Shown here: positions 4,610 to 8,947 of the stretch, piece after piece
Numbering within the stretch: position 1 is the first letter of the stretch
Layout of the letters: every line of letters starts with the position of its first letter
IMG/VR virus record: IMGVR_UViG_2737471852_000004
Length of the DNA stretch: 40,436 bases
DNA from: a virus
Lineage: Duplodnaviria > Heunggongvirae > Uroviricota > Caudoviricetes
Direction: 5' to 3' (one strand)
Position numbers and translations under genes: made by a program
Notes under the pieces: generated by a model
Database searches by the model: none
The model's input: only the letters and a program-made list of their open reading frames with translations
Told to the model about the DNA's origin: nothing

Positions 4610-4903
4610 TCAGTCATTACTGATAGCGCCATAGCGTGAGCGGTAATTACGCAGGCGCGGGTCAATTTCAGGGAAGTGGGTATATGTGGCTTTGCGGAAT
4701 GGTCGGATTGATGTCTGGTAAATTCGCTCGCGTTCTTTTTTCTCTGCAAGCCAGATACAATGGCGAAATTCCTTTTCCTCTTTCGTTTCCTGCGGTAGCG
4801 ACATTATCAGGTCGTAGTTTTTTCTGAATTTATCCAGCACCTCCAATACGGAATTGCCGGAACAGCGGCGCGCGTCGTCCGCACCATACAGAGGCGCTGG
4901 CAT
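4610..4903 (-). CDS. Hypothetical protein (97 aa)
   Basis: ATG at 4903 has AAGGA 7 nt upstream. Confidence 0.5.
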
Positions 4904-4926
4904 AATGGAATCCTTATTTTGCTAAT

Positions 4927-5310
4927 TTAGAAGGGAATTGAATCGTCGTATTCAGGATGATTTTGATGATTGCTACTTTGTTGCTGTTGGCTGTTTCCTG
5001 AAGTTGCAAATCCAATCTTTGCATTCAGTAATTCAAGAGTGATTGATTGACCATTTTGCCCCTGATAAGCATCAACCCTGATGTTTTCTCCGGTAATTTC
5101 AACAATGCCTCCTTCAACCAGAACGCTACGGTAGTAATCCGCTTGCGCTCCCGGCTTGGCAAATACAACGGCGCTGTAGTTTGTCCATTCTTTCTTTTTT
5201 GTCTGGCGATCGTAATACTGAACGCCAGCACGGATGTTGAATCCGATATTTTCCCCGGCCTGAAACTCTCTTGCGGGCTTGTTTAGTCTTACAGTAATCG
5301 AATGTGCCAT
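4927..5310 (-). CDS. Compact SSB-like protein with acidic C-terminal tip (...PEYDDSIPF)
   Basis: C-terminus matches the bacterial SSB tail D-D-D-I-P-F; OB-fold-like core; ATG overlaps the Erf stop (TAATG). Confidence 0.55.
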   Translation of the reverse strand: MAHSITVRLNKPAREFQAGENIGFNIRAGVQYYDRQTKKKEWTNYSAVVFAKPGAQADYYRSVLVEGGIVEITGENIRVDAYQGQNGQSITLELLNAKIGFATSGNSQQQQSSNHQNHPEYDDSIPF

Positions 5311-5915
5311 TAAGCAGCAGCTCCTTCTAATTCGTCTCGTCTGATGTTGTAAACGTCCTGCGCTTTGTGCTGCTCAGGTGTGCCTTCGAGCATCTTCCAC
5401 GCTTTGGCGAACGCCTGTTTAAGCTCTTCTACGGTGTTTTTCTGCATTGCTGCGTCAGTGAATGCTTTTAGAACCTGTTCAGGTGTAGGTGATGGTTTTG
5501 ATTGCTTTGCTGCTGCGTTCTGCTGATGTTTATGCTCGTCTGTATCTGCATCTTTCGCATCATCTATGCCGAACAAACCATTGAGGCAATACTTGCGCGC
5601 ATAAGAGCTTGTAGCTCCAGTAACTTGTGCAGAATCCATTCCTTTCTTGCTTTCTTCCTCTCGTGCAAGAGCAGTTGCCGTATGACTGTTTTCGCCATCG
5701 GTAATAGTTGCCGTGGCTTTCACGTAATACCGATCACCAATCAACACAACTTCATCGCTGATTGATAAAAACAGGCCATTCAGTAACGGCTTAACGCCTT
5801 CAAGAATGTCTTCGCAGCTTCTGTATTTATATTTACCGAATGAGTTGTACTGATTCTTTGGCGCGTTCAGATTCTCCTGAATAGCTGCCAGTCTTGCGTA
5901 AAATTCTTTGCTCAT
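5310..5915 (-). CDS. erf: Erf-family single-strand annealing recombinase
   Basis: MSKEFYARLAAIQENLNAPKNQYNSFGKYKYRSCEDILEGVKPLL... is near-identical to phage P22 Erf as recalled; start at Met 5915, not the upstream track start. Confidence 0.9.
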   Translation of the reverse strand: MSKEFYARLAAIQENLNAPKNQYNSFGKYKYRSCEDILEGVKPLLNGLFLSISDEVVLIGDRYYVKATATITDGENSHTATALAREEESKKGMDSAQVTGATSSYARKYCLNGLFGIDDAKDADTDEHKHQQNAAAKQSKPSPTPEQVLKAFTDAAMQKNTVEELKQAFAKAWKMLEGTPEQHKAQDVYNIRRDELEGAAA

Positions 5916-5925
5916 ATGATTGTTC

Positions 5926-6096
5926 TCAGAATGGACACGGCCCAAGGAAATAACGCTGATTTAATACTTCGACTCTGGACAAGTTAAGGCATACCCGCAT
6001 TCCTTCGCGGTCACCATTATGGCGATACCAGAGAGCTTTCTGCGTGTACATGCGTCTCTGTAACTTGCTCTCCTTCACTGTGGTTGCAAGTGACAT
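5926..6096 (-). CDS. Small ORF (56 aa) in the position of P22 arf
   Basis: ATG at 6096 has AAGGAG 6 nt upstream; assignment by position only; a competing 52-aa ORF (6017-6175) overlaps in another frame. Confidence 0.3.
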   Translation of the reverse strand: MSLATTVKESKLQRRMYTQKALWYRHNGDREGMRVCLNLSRVEVLNQRYFLGPCPF

Positions 6097-6171
6097 GAAT
6101 ATCTCCTTCGTTACCGATTAATTCTTTCATCTGACGAATGAATTCTTCGTCTGACCAGTTATCTGTAAAAC

Positions 6172-6324
6172 TCATTTCCTGCGATACCACGGAAGGTTGA
6201 TAGCTGATTTCATCGCTTTATTTGCTTCAAGCCACATTTTTGAATCACCAATAAATCTGGCTATTACTGCTTTGTTTTGTGCAGCACGAAGCATCTGGTG
6301 ATTGATGGCTATTTCATTGCGCAT
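6172..6324 (-). CDS. Small ORF (50 aa), possible Kil-like host-division inhibitor
   Basis: ATG at 6324 has GAGGT 6 nt upstream; between cIII-like and erf as kil is in P22; motif ARFIGDSKMW is only tentatively Kil-like. Confidence 0.35.
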   Translation of the reverse strand: MRNEIAINHQMLRAAQNKAVIARFIGDSKMWLEANKAMKSAINLPWYRRK

Positions 6325-6440
6325 AATAAGACCTCAACTCTTTTCCATCCGTCACGTAATTTACGGGTGATTCGTTCAAGTAAAGATTCATTTAGTTGGA
6401 AGGCACCCATGCGAGCGCCTCCCGCGATTGCGTAAATCAT
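6309..6440 (-). CDS. cIII: CIII-like protein (FtsH inhibitor / lysogeny promoter)
   Basis: 43 aa MIYAIAGGARMGAFQLNESLLERITRKLRDGWKR...; the ESLLERITRKLRDGWKR core matches lambda CIII as recalled; AAGGA RBS. Confidence 0.65.
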   Translation of the reverse strand: MIYAIAGGARMGAFQLNESLLERITRKLRDGWKRVEVLLCAMK

Positions 6441-6464: not shown

Positions 6465-7433
6465 TTAGTAGATTATTTTTGTTGCGAATACTTCGCCTTT
6501 TACGATGGCTGTTATGATATTTTTAGCAACATCTTCTGATGCGCCAACCTTGATAAGGTCAGCAAGTATTTTGTTATTTACTTCTTTTCGGTGAGCTTTA
6601 TCCTTTGCTCTACGCTCTTCTTCGTCCTTGATTCTTTTTTCTTCTGCTATTCTGGCTTGCTCTTTTGCTTCAGCCTCGCGCCGGATTCGTTCAGCCTCCT
6701 CCTGTGCTTTTCGGCGTTCTGCTTCAATTGCCGCCTGCTTTTCTCTTTCAGCTTGTTCTGCTGCCTCTTTTGCTTCGCGCTGTGCTCGTTGCTCGGCTTC
6801 AATGCGTTCACGCTCTGCACGTTCCGCTGCGGCCTTAGCTTCTGCTTCTCGCCTTGCTGCTGCTTCAATTTCGGCTTTTGCCTTTGCTTCGGCTTCAGCT
6901 CTGGCTTTCTCTTCAGCTTCTCTTTGTAAGCGTTCTTCATGCTCTCGCTTTTCCTTCTCCGCTTTGAGTCTTGCCTCTTCTCTTTGGCGGTCAAATTCGC
7001 GATCCATCAAAATCGCTATTTCATGGTCAGACTCAATTTGCTTTGCGAGAGCTTCAGCTGCTGCCTTAGCTTCTTCTTCGGCTTTAATCCGCGCCTGTTC
7101 TTCCTCATAATCAGTAAGAGGCTGGCGTGCCTTGGCTTTCAGCTCATCAAGGCGATCACGCACTGTCTTGCGGTTGGCATCAATTAGCTTTGGAATTTCC
7201 TTCAGTTCAGCAACAAGGTCTTTGCCAAGACCATCGAGATATGTTTTCGTCTGCGCAACTTTATACGCCAGAGAAGCGATCTCCTTTCTGCCCTTTGCCG
7301 TTGTGATATCAGGCACAAAGGACATAACTTCACGTTCAACCTTTTGGAGAATTTCTTCAATCTGGTCGGCAGACTGAAATACAGTCATTGCATTTGCTTT
7401 TTCAATAACAACTAAATCTGTTACTTCACTCAT
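6465..7433 (-). CDS. Hypothetical coiled-coil protein with about 180-aa E/A/K/R-rich low-complexity repeat
   Basis: Start at Met 7433 with GGAGG RBS (track ORF extends to 7487); N-terminal globular part, long AEAKA/EAERR repeat, short C-terminal domain. Confidence 0.6.
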   Translation of the reverse strand: MSEVTDLVVIEKANAMTVFQSADQIEEILQKVEREVMSFVPDITTAKGRKEIASLAYKVAQTKTYLDGLGKDLVAELKEIPKLIDANRKTVRDRLDELKAKARQPLTDYEEEQARIKAEEEAKAAAEALAKQIESDHEIAILMDREFDRQREEARLKAEKEKREHEERLQREAEEKARAEAEAKAKAEIEAAARREAEAKAAAERAERERIEAEQRAQREAKEAAEQAEREKQAAIEAERRKAQEEAERIRREAEAKEQARIAEEKRIKDEEERRAKDKAHRKEVNNKILADLIKVGASEDVAKNIITAIVKGEVFATKIIY

Positions 7434-7608
7434 ATATCCTCCATCAAAAAAATCGCCCTCACATCGGAGGGCAAAGAAGATTTCCAATAATCAGAACAAG
7501 TCGGCTCCTGTTTAGTTACGAGCGACATTGCTCCGTGTATTCACTCGTTGGAATGAATACACAGTGCAGTGTTTATTCTGTTGTTTATGCTAAAAATAAA
7601 GGCCACCA

Positions 7609-7860
7609 TCAGGCAGCCTTGTTGTAAATGTTGCAGGTATCAAGTAAGTAATTAGATGGAGCGCCATAAATTATGAATTCATCGTTTGTCGGGTCCATCT
7701 CCATCTCTTGGCCTATTGCCATTCTTGCGTCAGTGTCATCAGCGGCGAAGCATAAAACAGCCCACGCACCCATTGTTTTAAAAAGAACTGCAATTGGCTG
7801 TGGTTTTACTGAATTTGCGTTAGCGCGAAAATCACAAATCGCACTTTCATGAAACTCCAT
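7609..7860 (-). CDS. Hypothetical protein (83 aa)
   Basis: ATG at 7860 has GAGGTG 4 nt upstream. Confidence 0.5.
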   Translation of the reverse strand: MEFHESAICDFRANANSVKPQPIAVLFKTMGAWAVLCFAADDTDARMAIGQEMEMDPTNDEFIIYGAPSNYLLDTCNIYNKAA

Positions 7861-7914
7861 ATATCACCTCAAATAAGTGGTTTGCTGCGAAAGTAAATAC
7901 GCTTAAGTTACCTG

Positions 7915-8052
7915 TTATTTATCCCACCAAGTTCCGTATTTATCTATCCAGTTACACCAATCATCGACACTCCATTTTGTTGTGTCGCATTTTGGCAATT
8001 GGCATGAATATCTACCTTCTTTGTAAAGTCGGCGTTTGACTTTCTTGAGCAT
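7915..8052 (-). CDS. Hypothetical small Cys/Trp-rich protein (45 aa)
   Basis: Below the ORF-track cutoff; ATG at 8052 has GAGGT 4 nt upstream; translation MLKKVKRRLYKEGRYSCQLPKCDTTKWSVDDWCNWIDKYGTWWDK. Confidence 0.35.
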   Translation of the reverse strand: MLKKVKRRLYKEGRYSCQLPKCDTTKWSVDDWCNWIDKYGTWWDK

Positions 8053-8190: not shown

Positions 8191-8529
8191 CTATGACCAT
8201 TTTTTATTTGGATTTCGTTGGTGAGCGTGATTAACAACTCTGTGCATTACATCCTCATATTTTTCATCTTCAATTTTTTCGACATCGCGAGGAAATGGTG
8301 TTGCTAATGCTTTGTCAACTTTATCCATTGGGTCTTCATTAATCTTATATTCAGGACCGTCATCTATAGCATTAAATCCAGGTGTTACACCGTTTTTTAA
8401 TGCATATGCTATCCTCTTTTCCCATCTCGCTATTCTCCTCCTGTCTCGAGATGTAAGACCTCTATCAGATACTTTTCTGTTTTGTCCGCGGTCAGGATTA
8501 ACATAAATAGTCTTTTTCACCATAAGCAT
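8191..8529 (-). CDS. Hypothetical basic protein (about 112 aa)
   Basis: ORF directly downstream of the N-like gene; start uncertain (ATG 8529 or 8523, or TTG 8535). Confidence 0.5.
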   Translation of the reverse strand: MLMVKKTIYVNPDRGQNRKVSDRGLTSRDRRRIARWEKRIAYALKNGVTPGFNAIDDGPEYKINEDPMDKVDKALATPFPRDVEKIEDEKYEDVMHRVVNHAHQRNPNKKWS

Positions 8530-8531
8530 AC

Positions 8532-8837
8532 TCAATAAGCACCGTACGGTAGTTTACCGTACAATTTTATTTTTTGGACTGCATGTATTTTGTTTCCTAA
8601 TGGGTTTGAATCTTTGTAATAAATACTTCTATTTTTTCGAACGACTTCTTCTTTCTTCTTGCAGCAAAGGATTCCTAGTGATGCTGCTTTGTCTGCTTTG
8701 ACGCAACCAGAGAGCTTTAGCGCAATTTTTCGCGCCAGTGCTTCATTACTGCGTCGCTCGGCAATAAGTTCTGCTCTGCGAGCTTTGTAGCGGCTTTTTG
8801 CCGTACCTTTGGATTCTTTCCAGACAATGGTTACCAT
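8532..8837 (-). CDS. N: N-like transcription antiterminator (arginine-rich motif), P22 gene 24 type
   Basis: First gene downstream of PL; N-terminus MVTIVWKESKGTAKSRYKARRAELIAERR is an arginine-rich motif; AAGGAG RBS at Met 8837. Confidence 0.55.
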   Translation of the reverse strand: MVTIVWKESKGTAKSRYKARRAELIAERRSNEALARKIALKLSGCVKADKAASLGILCCKKKEEVVRKNRSIYYKDSNPLGNKIHAVQKIKLYGKLPYGAY

Positions 8838-8947
8838 GATGGTCTCCTTTAAGTGGCTTTGGCGCATGACGCGTCGAGGTGCTTATCTTCTCGATCGCTG
8901 TCTTGCAGCTGCAATTCGCGCCATCCCCAAAACCACTCAAGTTCTGG

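Follow-up and report, generated by a model that had tools for sequence, protein, structure and literature searches.

Identification of the gene

The window analysed here, the whole 40,436-nt stretch of the virus record IMGVR_UViG_2737471852_000004, carries a gene whose product is dominated by a long run of charged residues. The locus raises the question of which protein family this product represents and what such a protein does for a phage. An earlier note, made from the sequence alone, placed the gene in the PL operon, predicted a 323-aa coiled-coil protein with a repeat that may vary in length, and considered it a candidate for host interaction, exclusion or anti-defence.

The gene is located where it had been placed, although its product is 322 aa rather than 323 aa in length (Table 1). 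It lies on the minus strand, with an ATG start codon at position 7433 and a stop codon at 6465-6467. An alternative 340-aa ORF with a TTG start is unlikely because this start would fall within the upstream terminator. The ORF is a true gene and not a chance ORF, and it is under purifying, not diversifying, selection: in 70 alleles, pN/pS is 0.06 for the N-terminal domain, 0.20 for the ER/K region and 0.27 for the C-terminal domain. The gene is present in about 10% of complete E. coli genomes.

Table 1. Features of the gene and its surroundings in the window
Feature	Position	Strand	Description or basis
CDS, Agt / gp53 / Sf6-gp33 family protein	6465..7433	minus	322 aa + stop codon; ORF and sequence, homology, PHROG 1376, purifying selection
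N-terminal conserved domain, aa 1-118	7080..7433	minus	motif VPDxTTxKGRxEIASxAxKVAxxKT..D..GK.L....K......D..RK..R..LD.....R.PLT.(W/Y)E
Charged E/A/K/R helical spacer, aa 119-280, ER/K single-alpha-helix-like	6594..7079	minus	composition, salt-bridge pairs, helix prediction
C-terminal small domain, aa 281-322	6468..6593	minus	consensus H(R/K)..IN..A...L...G..E..AK....AI..G.IP...I.Y
Shine-Dalgarno GGAGG	7438..7442	minus	five bases 5' of ATG; read off sequence
Intrinsic terminator directly upstream of gene, tL2A of Sf6	7446..7474 (stem 7453-7474 + U-run)	minus	terminator scan, Sf6 annotation, RNA fold
Second intrinsic terminator, after upstream ORF	7599..7620	minus	terminator scan, RNA fold
Downstream operon partners	4610..6440	minus	PHROG assignments; order as annotated in Sf6 and mEp043
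cIII	6309-6440	minus	PHROG
kil	6172-6324	minus	PHROG
Two small ORFs	6017-6190, 5926-6096	minus	
erf	5310-5945	minus	PHROG; starts 519 nt downstream of the gene
SSB-like gene	4927-5310	minus	PHROG
abc2 anti-RecBCD gene	4610-4903	minus	PHROG
Shadow ORF	6591-6929	plus	112 aa
Shadow ORF	6628-7110	plus	160 aa
Shadow ORF	6647-6994	minus (other frame)	115 aa
Shadow ORF	6939-7187	plus	82 aa

The DNA encoding residues 119-280 is the source of both the low complexity and the shadow ORFs of this locus. The three long spurious ORFs reported earlier on the two strands all exist, and the 82-aa ORF in Table 1 can be added to them. The low complexity is found at the codon level (GAA, GCA, GAG and AAA). Tandem Repeats Finder detects one weak 6-nt array only (score 36, 61% matches), and the direct-repeat families are 65-89% alike with irregular spacing. 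A true DNA tandem repeat array was rejected on these grounds, such that the DNA-level repeats proposed in the note are retained as low complexity but not as an array.

The window gene is the E. coli / Shigella allele of a family that includes phi80 agt, D3 orf53 and Sf6 gene 33; the suspicion that it stands outside the canonical P22 gene set was correct. Its product matches PHROG 1376 over residues 1-322 (E-value: 2.7e-109) and is 50% identical to phi80 Agt over all 322 aa (E-value: 3e-63). Full-length DNA matches are found in 35 phage records (Sf6 gene 33 and 34 others), with identities of 96.8-98.7% (98.2% for Sf6). Near-identical phage homologues include IME10 Orf53 and those of mEp043, mEp213, mEp234, HK544 and HK633. 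No function is annotated for Sf6 gene 33 or these near-identical records. D3 gp53 has an N-terminal domain that is 52-55% identical to that of the window protein (52% over residues 5-122, E-value: 9e-38), and it has the same C-terminal motif.

The gene is already catalogued and only modestly new, and the family is very large and unnamed. A profile of the N-terminal domain matches 5,714 protein clusters. In Pfam, the window protein has no match at E ≤ 1, and 36 diverse family members (the window protein included) have chance hits only. A search of NCBIfam with the window protein gave no family match, and a sequence search of the PDB with the same protein returned none; the N-domain profile has no significant PDB match. 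A Foldseek comparison of the AF2 model of the window protein with the PDB gave no match below an E-value of 2, and the fold searches connected the protein neither with lambda Gam or Mu Gam/Ku nor with a DNA-binding fold of any kind. No Rfam family was found over the whole window. Literature searches on agt, gamL, Sf6 gp33 and PHROG 1376 yielded almost nothing informative. The gene is not among the module members in the available part of the latest catalogue, a survey of 325 lambdoid Rec modules.

Protein architecture

The layout described in the note (an N-terminal domain, a charged region and a short C-terminal domain) is correct, with boundaries as shown in Table 1. All 14 columns that are invariant across the 36 family members are present in the window protein, in the N-domain motif KGRxEIAS ... 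GK.L ... RK..R..LD ... R.PLT.WE. Residues 46-150 are amphipathic and may pack as a bundle. The C-terminal domain is conserved throughout the family, including D3 gp53 and phi80 Agt. Its profile has weak, non-significant PDB matches to UBA and RuvA domain III (E-values: 0.03-1.5), which serve as a lead only. A search for other architectures containing this domain returned just fragments of the same family.

Glu, Ala, Lys and Arg make up 80% of residues 119-280 (Ala alone accounts for 42 of 162), and hydrophobic residues make up 6% of residues 150-280. The charged spacer is predicted to form one continuous helix. Opposite-charge pairs at i/i+3 and i/i+4 in residues 119-280 occur at 0.50 per residue compared to a shuffle mean of 0.32 (sd 0.035), a density matched by none of 2000 shuffles. 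In contrast to what is expected for the coiled coil proposed in the note, the best heptad register for residues 150-280 places hydrophobic residues at approximately 1-2 of 8 a/d positions through most of the region. A canonical heptad coiled coil was rejected because of this missing a/d seam. As the seam is missing and the opposite-charge pairs exceed those of all shuffles, the spacer looks like an ER/K single alpha-helix (SAH) instead.

Structure prediction also included P0216, a 53%-identical relative, as a target. Sequence and models together suggest that the window protein is non-enzymatic and all-helical, with an N-terminal helical bundle carrying several invariant Lys/Arg residues. The ER/K spacer of approximately 160 residues, the length of which is conserved, would extend for approximately 24 nm if fully helical.

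Most database records give the products of this family TolA-type names ('cell envelope biogenesis protein TolA', 'colicin import membrane protein'). Apart from these names, the idea that the window protein is a TolA-type envelope protein draws on a match to TIGR02794, but this match scores 8.7 bits against a cut-off of 59.45 (E-value: 0.91). No Pfam TolA domain is found, and the resemblance is limited to the Ala/Glu/Lys-rich helix. A hydrophobic anchor is also lacking: the N-terminus contains no hydrophobic segment, and the Kyte-Doolittle mean over 19 residues peaks at 1.03 (residue 293). A TolA identity was rejected on the basis of these domain comparisons and is extremely improbable; the label is an artefact of composition. 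Nearly every genome record mislabels the family in this way, and linking its members corrects a widespread annotation error.

Length variation and selection

The expectation that the repeat varies in length between isolates applies to exceptional alleles only. In-frame variants of 245-333 aa, with deletions or duplications within the charged region, occur in E. coli, but 74 of 79 close relatives (94%) encode exactly 322 aa, and this length is retained in Enterobacter, Cronobacter, Citrobacter and Salmonella at 76-78% identity. Frameshifted alleles are found in some relatives, including phage CUS-3 and a UTI89 prophage, and a D3 mutant deleted for orf51-53 is viable (PMC12407980). The gene is dispensable for plaque formation.

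These data bear on the reading put forward in the note, that of a length-variable effector of host interaction, exclusion or anti-defence engaged in an arms race. The in-frame variants are compatible with such an effector, as are the location of the gene in the accessory early-left region, where kil and cIII are its neighbours, and the genetic interaction of the family with a defence system (discussed below). However, the length is constant in most close relatives and across genera, and the low pN/pS values speak against diversification. PADLOC reports no family for the window protein at E ≤ 0.01, and the known link to defence is one of sensitisation, not inhibition. Two findings that the note itself had named as counting against its reading were obtained, namely a confident family match (full-length phi80 agt) and closely related copies that are frameshifted (in phage CUS-3 and in the UTI89 prophage). 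The arms-race reading is largely refuted by the length and selection data and is very unlikely to be correct.

Operon context

As predicted, the gene belongs to the PL operon. An N-like gene is located at 8532-8867, and two intrinsic terminators (Table 1) precede the gene. The presence of both terminators upstream means that expression depends on N antitermination, and the gene is accordingly a delayed-early gene of this operon. Downstream, abc2 co-occurs with the gene in 63 of 68 E. coli-relative loci. Because this co-occurrence is nearly constant, the gene is no stand-alone substitute for an anti-RecBCD gene. Phage mEp234 was considered as a case in which the gene replaces a missing anti-RecBCD gene, but this argument was dropped because an IS element has disrupted that module.

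Phenotypes of relatives

The phi80 record (NC_021190) describes agt as 'anti-toxin for Gam; modifier of Gam' and the adjacent gamL as 'toxic without Mog'. Relief of GamL toxicity by phi80 Agt is known only from the annotation of this record; the name agt reportedly comes from Rotman et al. 2012. A gamL gene is absent from the window phage (best tblastn E-value: 6.3), and among approximately 75 diverse family loci a gamL homologue is found in one (L101), where it lies directly downstream. GamL antitoxin activity was rejected as the general function of the family, as gamL is missing from the window and nearly all loci.

The second phenotype concerns Gabija. By itself, D3 orf53 makes escape phages of D3 and JBD30 targets of Gabija once more (Hong et al., bioRxiv 2025, PMC12407980). 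When carried on a plasmid, orf53 lowers the transduction of that plasmid, and gp53 also has its licensing effect in escape phages without exo-erf (PMC12407980). Exo-Erf and Mu Gam behave like D3 gp53 in the Gabija assay (PMC12407980). In the model of that study, DNA becomes sensitive to Gabija when a factor prevents RecBCD from reaching its ends; only three of the six licensing factors are counted as end-binding systems (PMC12407980). Two genetic studies tie the family to Gabija defence and to RecBCD, a nuclease of the host.

One interpretation of these phenotypes is that the protein is a dedicated antidote or chaperone that binds the phage's own RecBCD inhibitor (GamL in phi80, Abc2 here), titrating or delivering it, with no DNA activity of its own. 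The wording of the phi80 annotation, the frequent company of abc2 in E. coli relatives and the gamL homologue at L101 are all consistent with this idea. However, most loci have no recognisable adjacent gam, gamL or abc2 (e.g. D3 and modules with the order [family]-ERF-YqaJ-SSB). GamL and Abc2 are unrelated proteins, and so a single conserved binder for both is improbable. D3 orf53 also works alone in trans, even on the unrelated phage JBD30 (PMC12407980). A dedicated antidote is therefore considered unlikely.

Synteny with recombination genes

Seventy diverse bacterial loci from Gamma-, Beta- and Alphaproteobacteria, Planctomycetes and others were compared. In 63 of these, the same strand carries, no more than 3.5 kb away, a gene for a strand-annealing protein (ERF, RecT or Sak4), an exonuclease (YqaJ or DUF3799) or SSB. 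The family gene typically comes first, usually in what can be called the "gam position", and is followed by genes for the annealing protein, the exonuclease and SSB, in that order. The order is orf53-erf-exo in D3 and agt-gamL-recT-exo in phi80, and the metagenomic loci L003 and L005 are arranged likewise. A Mu-Gam-like gene is found in this slot in Lactobacillus phage Lc-Nu. Several unrelated genes occupy it in Firmicutes phages, and an analogous function has been proposed for them (PMC8093625). Synteny points to a role for the window protein as an accessory of the Rec module, usually encoded in the slot of lambda gam or a Mu-Gam homologue.

Neighbouring genes often begin 4-12 nt past the stop codon of the family gene, and this tight spacing to an annealing or exonuclease gene suggests co-translation in fixed proportion. 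Such coupling would suit a recombination mediator or scaffold, the two ends of which bind an annealing protein or exonuclease and SSB (or ssDNA) to couple resection to annealing, with only an indirect effect on RecBCD and Gabija. The position of the gene between exonuclease and SSB genes at L005 and L126 would fit a scaffold, as would the Gabija phenotype that D3 Exo-Erf shares with gp53. Conversely, the neighbours belong to three unrelated annealing families and two exonuclease families, and the same C-domain sequence type is found with ERF, RecT+YqaJ and YqaJ modules. No support was found for a C-domain type that tracks the type of neighbouring annealing protein or exonuclease, and the partner of this domain is probably universal rather than cognate. 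Licensing of Gabija by D3 gp53 in phages without exo-erf also argues against a scaffold, and in the window four other genes lie between the gene and erf. A scaffold function is unlikely.

With respect to the roles suggested in the note, involvement in phage-host conflict is upheld because D3 gp53 licenses Gabija targeting. Exclusion and effects on cell division are not favoured, given synteny that points to a recombination module.

Proposed role

The preferred reading, which stands a roughly even chance of being correct, is that the window protein is a non-essential accessory of the Rec module at the interface of phage DNA ends and RecBCD, where it acts as a non-catalytic, ruler-like modulator. 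Its action may be pictured in the following way. The protein would be a non-catalytic agent located at the termini of linear phage DNA or close to them. It would contact DNA or a DNA-mimic inhibitor at one end (binding to DNA ends is what we infer) and, a fixed distance away, a common host factor at the other. RecBCD would then be held back, or its activity modulated, only locally and not cell-wide, aiding recombination of the Erf/SSB/Abc2 type. Buffering of the toxicity of a RecBCD inhibitor would correspond to the phi80 Agt phenotype, and DNA left recognisable by Gabija would correspond to the D3 gp53 phenotype. Several observations count against this modulator: cIII, kil and two small ORFs separate the gene from erf in E. 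coli relatives, where abc2 nearly always accompanies it; gamL is missing from the window and nearly all family loci; the fold searches point to no DNA-binding fold; the survey of lambdoid Rec modules omits the gene; only half of the Gabija licensing factors are counted as end-binding systems (PMC12407980); and the N-terminal domain is not basic overall (pI 5.3), with a pI of 9.2 for residues 39-118.

A broader proposal, possible but on the doubtful side, is that Rec-module proteins include a fifth functional class, so far unrecognised, formed by the Agt/gp53 family. Its members would be inert 'rulers', with the N-terminal bundle on DNA ends or DNA mimics and the distal C-terminal domain on a conserved host factor. 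They would be the commonest occupants of the gam position in proteobacterial prophages, keeping RecBCD away locally and thereby serving as a general trigger of phage exposure to defences of the Gabija or OLD type.

Taken alone, the gene is unremarkable: it is almost identical to Sf6 gene 33 and orthologous to phi80 agt over its full length. What merits attention is the family: it comprises thousands of clusters without a Pfam model, located beside Erf/RecT/Sak4, exonuclease and SSB genes across several phyla, and two independent genetic phenotypes both point to a conflict that involves RecBCD, phage DNA ends and defence systems. Treating phi80 Agt, D3 gp53 and Sf6 gp33 as one family provides a model that is tractable in E. 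coli, made up of Sf6, HK544, the mEp phages and natural 245-aa and frameshift alleles. This model could be used to address what the Gabija licensing factors do and whether Rec modules hold a further standard component.

Comparison with known systems

Sf6 gene 33 is essentially the same gene with the same surroundings (tL2A before it and cIII after it) and no difference of substance; the HK633 homologue differs by a 22-aa in-frame deletion. Phi80 Agt (also named Mog; NC_021190 gp39, phi80 being identical to Lula) has the same length of 322 aa as the window protein, and the identity spans the N-terminal domain, the charged helix (including a DHE(I/M)A(I/L)LM..FDR segment) and the C-terminal domain. 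In both phages the gene lies in the PL operon, after N and kil in phi80, and ahead of the Rec genes. In phi80 it is followed directly by gamL-recT-exo, whereas in the window it is followed by cIII-kil-two small ORFs-erf-ssb-like-abc2, with no gamL.

D3 gp53 resembles the window protein in its homologous N-terminal domain, C-terminal motif and ER/K/A-rich helix, and it is likewise non-essential. It differs in length (354 aa), having an extra helical segment of approximately 70 residues after the N-terminal domain that the enterobacterial subgroup lacks. Its host is also different (Pseudomonas), and the Gabija phenotype belongs to the D3 protein.

ER/K SAH spacers are known from proteins such as myosin VI/X and caldesmon. 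The window spacer is similar to these in composition, dense i/i+4 opposite-charge pairs, paucity of hydrophobic residues and long-helix prediction. It differs in being Ala-rich, like TolA domain II, and its helix is a putative monomer.

In Firmicutes, DUF1351 (PF07083), DUF2483 and Sipho_Gp157 (PF05565) are helical proteins encoded just upstream of erf, sak4 or recT and ssb (PMC8093625). The likeness of the window family to these proteins, compared through Pfam models, appears to be one of position only; at E ≤ 0.1, the DUF1351 model has no match among the 36 members scanned, one of which is the window protein. The genes for lambda Gam, phi80 GamL, Mu Gam and P22 Abc2 occupy a similar place, leading or flanking the Rec module. 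In comparison, the window protein is much larger, contains an ER/K spacer and has no sequence or fold similarity to these four proteins. In enterobacterial phages, the family gene co-occurs with Abc2 or GamL and does not replace either.

Operon organization and expression signals

The gene lies on the minus strand, in the PL operon, which is ordered N-like, Nun-like, two small ORFs, two terminators, the gene, cIII, kil, two small ORFs, erf, SSB-like and abc2. This layout is in agreement with the Sf6 and mEp043 annotations. The earlier note could not place the gene in the canonical P22 set, and it does lie outside it. The N-like and Nun-like genes overlap by 4 nt, and both regulator types thus adjoin at the head of the operon (8191-8867).

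Features of the gene, its product and the surrounding PL operon
Feature	Position	Strand	Remark
N-like antiterminator gene	8532-8867	minus	phrog_271
Nun-like termination-factor gene	8191-8535	minus	phrog_5632
Second intrinsic terminator	7599-7620	minus	terminator scan, RNA fold
Intrinsic terminator (Sf6 'tL2A')	stem 7453-7474 and U-run	minus	directly before GGAGG; terminator scan, RNA fold
Shine-Dalgarno-type GGAGG	five bases 5' of ATG	minus	
CDS of the gene	ATG at 7433, stop 6465-6467	minus	322 aa
N-domain	aa 1-118		conserved
Charged stretch	aa 119-280		E/A/K/R = 80%
C-domain	aa 281-322		small, conserved
cIII	6309-6440	minus	
kil	6172-6324	minus	
erf	5310-5945	minus	
SSB-like gene	4927-5310	minus	
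abc2	4610-4903	minus	

A longer TTG-initiated version of the ORF, found in the ORF listing, is unlikely because its start would fall within a terminator. The leader (7444-7625, minus strand, from the upstream ORF to the gene) has an unusually strong fold (MFE -63.9 kcal/mol, z -7.0) and holds a perfect 14-bp hairpin at approximately 7528-7560, which lacks a U-run and lies between the two terminators. No Rfam family matches this leader. The middle hairpin might serve in processing or be one more tL2-type signal.

Family membership and annotation

By sequence similarity, the gene belongs to the Agt/gp53/Sf6-gp33 family. An N-domain profile (alignment A1) searched against 1.84 billion representatives recovered 5,714 clusters at E <= 0.001, with 5,128 of these at E <= 1e-10. 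Family members are usually 300-380 aa in length and share an E/R/K/A-rich helix followed by a C-terminal H(R/K)..IN...AI..G.IP...I.Y domain; 14 N-domain columns are invariant in 36 members. Most members have an extra helical segment of ~70 residues that is absent from the enterobacterial subgroup. A Pfam scan of 36 members (including the window protein) matched no relevant family, the PADLOC models did not match the window protein and its PHROG (1376) is of 'unknown function'. Database records name the product 'hypothetical', 'colicin import membrane protein' or 'cell envelope biogenesis protein TolA'. No test bears out the TolA name: the match to TIGR02794 reaches 8.7 bits (cut-off: 59.45), and the protein has neither a Pfam match nor a hydrophobic anchor.

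Protein architecture

The three-part layout described in the earlier note stands, as do the shadow ORFs on both strands (two on the plus strand, of 112 and 160 aa, and one of 115 aa in another minus-strand frame). Its description of the DNA as low in complexity also holds, and can be attributed to the use of few codons (GAA, GCA, GAG and AAA). The proposed DNA repeat array was rejected: Tandem Repeats Finder detects a single 6-nt array, which is weak (score 36), and the direct repeats are unevenly spaced, with 65-89% similarity within their families. The charged stretch had been described as a coiled coil. After aa 150, it is nearly devoid of hydrophobic residues (6%), and it contains 0.50 opposite-charge pairs per residue (i/i+3 and i/i+4) versus 0.32 when shuffled, a value reached by 0 of 2000 shuffles. 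Because of these scarce hydrophobics and excess charge pairs, the stretch bears the signature of an ER/K single alpha-helix and not of a heptad coiled coil. As one uninterrupted helix, this ER/K spacer of fixed length would span ~24 nm.

With a pI of 5.3, the complete N-domain is not basic, and the protein showed no recognizable DNA-binding fold. A C-domain profile (alignment A6; C-terminal 52 aa, window 6468-6623) searched against the PDB gave recurrent weak matches to UBA domains and to the RuvB-binding domain of RuvA (domain III), with E-values of 0.03-1.5, none of them significant. As a lead, the C-domain may be a small three-helix protein-binding module.

Distribution, selection and alleles

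Genes with 96.8-98.7% DNA identity are found in 35 phage records, including Sf6 (gene 33), mEp043, mEp213, mEp234, IME10 (Orf53), HK544, HK633, Sf101, CUS-3 and Stx1a phages, and 530 of 5,426 complete E. coli genomes carry it. The pN/pS ratio, calculated from 70 distinct alleles, is 0.06 in the N-domain, 0.20 in the ER/K region and 0.27 in the C-domain; purifying selection therefore acts on the entire ORF.

The earlier note had suggested that the repeat may vary in length between isolates. Occasional in-frame variants do exist in E. coli (245, 275, 290, 300, 306, 309 and 333 aa), all due to deletion or duplication within the charged region, but 74 of 79 close relatives in IMG/VR are exactly 322 aa and the remaining five are frameshift truncations. 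Homologues from Enterobacter, Cronobacter, Citrobacter and Salmonella (76-78% identity) keep this length, as does phi80 Agt at 50% identity. For a helix of such low complexity, this constancy points to a spacer with a set length and not to a freely varying repeat.

In CUS-3 (L171, CP000711 35058-36027) and the E. coli UTI89 prophage (L172), a single nucleotide has been inserted behind gene nt 336 (GAAGAA-T-CAGG). Two ORFs result, one of 116 aa for the N-domain and one of 214 aa, and PGAP labels the gene 'frameshifted'; this split accounts for the existence of PHROG 17211 for the N-terminal part and PHROG 21365 for the C-terminal part. The gene is dispensable, as shown by these split copies, the five truncated relatives and the viability of D3 lacking orf51-53 (PMC12407980). 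A 111-aa protein on a 415-kb E. coli contig (P0019) consists of aa 1-80 of the window protein followed, in the same frame, by the C-terminal 31 aa of Abc2 (compare window 7194-7433 and 4610-4705), and results from a deletion that took cIII, kil, erf and ssb out of a prophage remnant. Many public entries for the gene are 'partial' proteins broken at contig ends, on the N- and C-terminal sides alike; their large share points to frequent breaks of short-read assemblies within the gene or close to it.

Association with recombination genes

Eighty loci were fetched (one genome per species) from Gamma-, Beta- and Alphaproteobacteria, Planctomycetes, Bryobacteraceae and others, and the neighbouring ORFs were clustered and their representatives annotated with Pfam. 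At least one recombination gene is present on the same strand within 3.5 kb in 63 of the 70 loci with enough flank, often starting 4-12 nt past the stop of the family gene. Counted by cluster, the recurrent neighbours are ERF (15 and 10 loci), RecT (9 and 7), Sak4/AAA_24 (5), YqaJ exonuclease (29), DUF3799 PD-(D/E)XK nuclease (15) and SSB (28), with a cI-type repressor 2-5 kb upstream in 29 loci. The commonest order is family gene, annealing protein, exonuclease and SSB. Two metagenomic loci are arranged as in bacterial loci (L003, family gene-YqaJ; L005, RecT-YqaJ-x-family gene-SSB). Across phyla, the family gene has kept its place beside recombination genes.

In lambda, the slot that it occupies belongs to gam, and in Lactobacillus phage Lc-Nu to a Mu-Gam-like gene. 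In Firmicutes phages, this slot is filled by Mu-Gam homologues, DUF2483, DUF1351 or Sipho_Gp157, for which an analogous function has been proposed (PMC8093625). A 2025 survey of the Rec modules of 325 lambdoid phages does not include the gene among the module components (PMC12315714).

Proposed function and comparison with known systems

Two relatives found by tblastn of phage genomes have phenotypes. In phi80, agt carries the annotation 'anti-toxin for Gam; Mog (modifier of Gam)', and gamL ('toxic without Mog'), a recT-like gene and exo follow directly downstream. In Pseudomonas phage D3, orf53 is directly 5' of erf (orf52) and exo (orf51). Exo-Erf, gp53 and gp66 are three redundant factors that license Gabija in D3 (Hong et al., bioRxiv 2025, PMC12407980). 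Supplied in trans, orf53 makes escape phages of D3 and JBD30 targets again, and it lowers the transduction of a plasmid that carries it by 1-2 log. In the authors' model, proteins that keep RecBCD off linear DNA ends turn the DNA into a Gabija substrate; gp53's own molecular action is not specified.

Because both phenotypes concern RecBCD antagonism and the gene occupies the gam slot, we infer that the window protein is a non-catalytic Rec-module accessory at the interface of phage DNA ends and RecBCD. The neighbours belong to unrelated strand-annealing protein and exonuclease families, and the same C-domain type occurs with different ones; this speaks for a shared partner (for example DNA, RecBCD or SSB) and against a cognate phage protein, in support of the accessory role. 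The ER/K spacer, with its fixed length, and the Lys/Arg residues conserved in the N-domain helix would fit a two-ended tether. A protein with affinity for DNA would presumably also bind inhibitors that mimic DNA, Gam-type proteins among them, which would explain the relief of GamL toxicity. A tentative and rather doubtful extension is that the protein is a general, unrecognized component of Rec modules, keeping RecBCD out locally and setting off Gabija.

Two other roles were rejected. A specific GamL antidote would match the phi80 annotation, but gamL is not found in the window and occurs in just 1 of ~75 diverse loci. That locus, L101 (a Pseudescherichia MAG), is the only one besides phi80 in which a gamL homologue (locus 7088-7369, 52% identity) directly follows the family gene, and could be a second natural agt-gamL pair in which the antidote phenotype may be seen. 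A stand-alone replacement for the anti-RecBCD gene in E. coli phages conflicts with the presence of abc2 in 63 of 68 close relatives. These relatives have one of two Erf/SSB sequence types, or now and then a RecT module. A published table classes mEp234 as having no anti-RecBCD gene. In mEp234 (L170, PV340539), an IS element with two transposase ORFs is inserted just after erf (locus 6624-7918), and the ssb and abc2 of its sister phages are missing. This insertion may be the reason for the table entry, and because of it mEp234 is evidence neither way.

The earlier note regarded the gene as a candidate for host interaction, exclusion or anti-defence. The link to phage-host conflict is retained, but both findings that the note had set beforehand as counting against its reading were made, namely a confident match to a named gene (phi80 agt) and close relatives in which the ORF is frameshifted. 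The kind to which the gene belongs is known, if poorly characterized. By-products of the analysis are the family-wide Rec-module synteny, the reading of the spacer as ER/K, the corrected TolA annotation and the link between phi80 Agt, D3 gp53 and Sf6 gp33: phi80 Agt is 50% identical to the window protein over all 322 residues (E-value: 3e-63), and D3 gp53 is 52% identical in the N-domain and has the same C-terminal motif.
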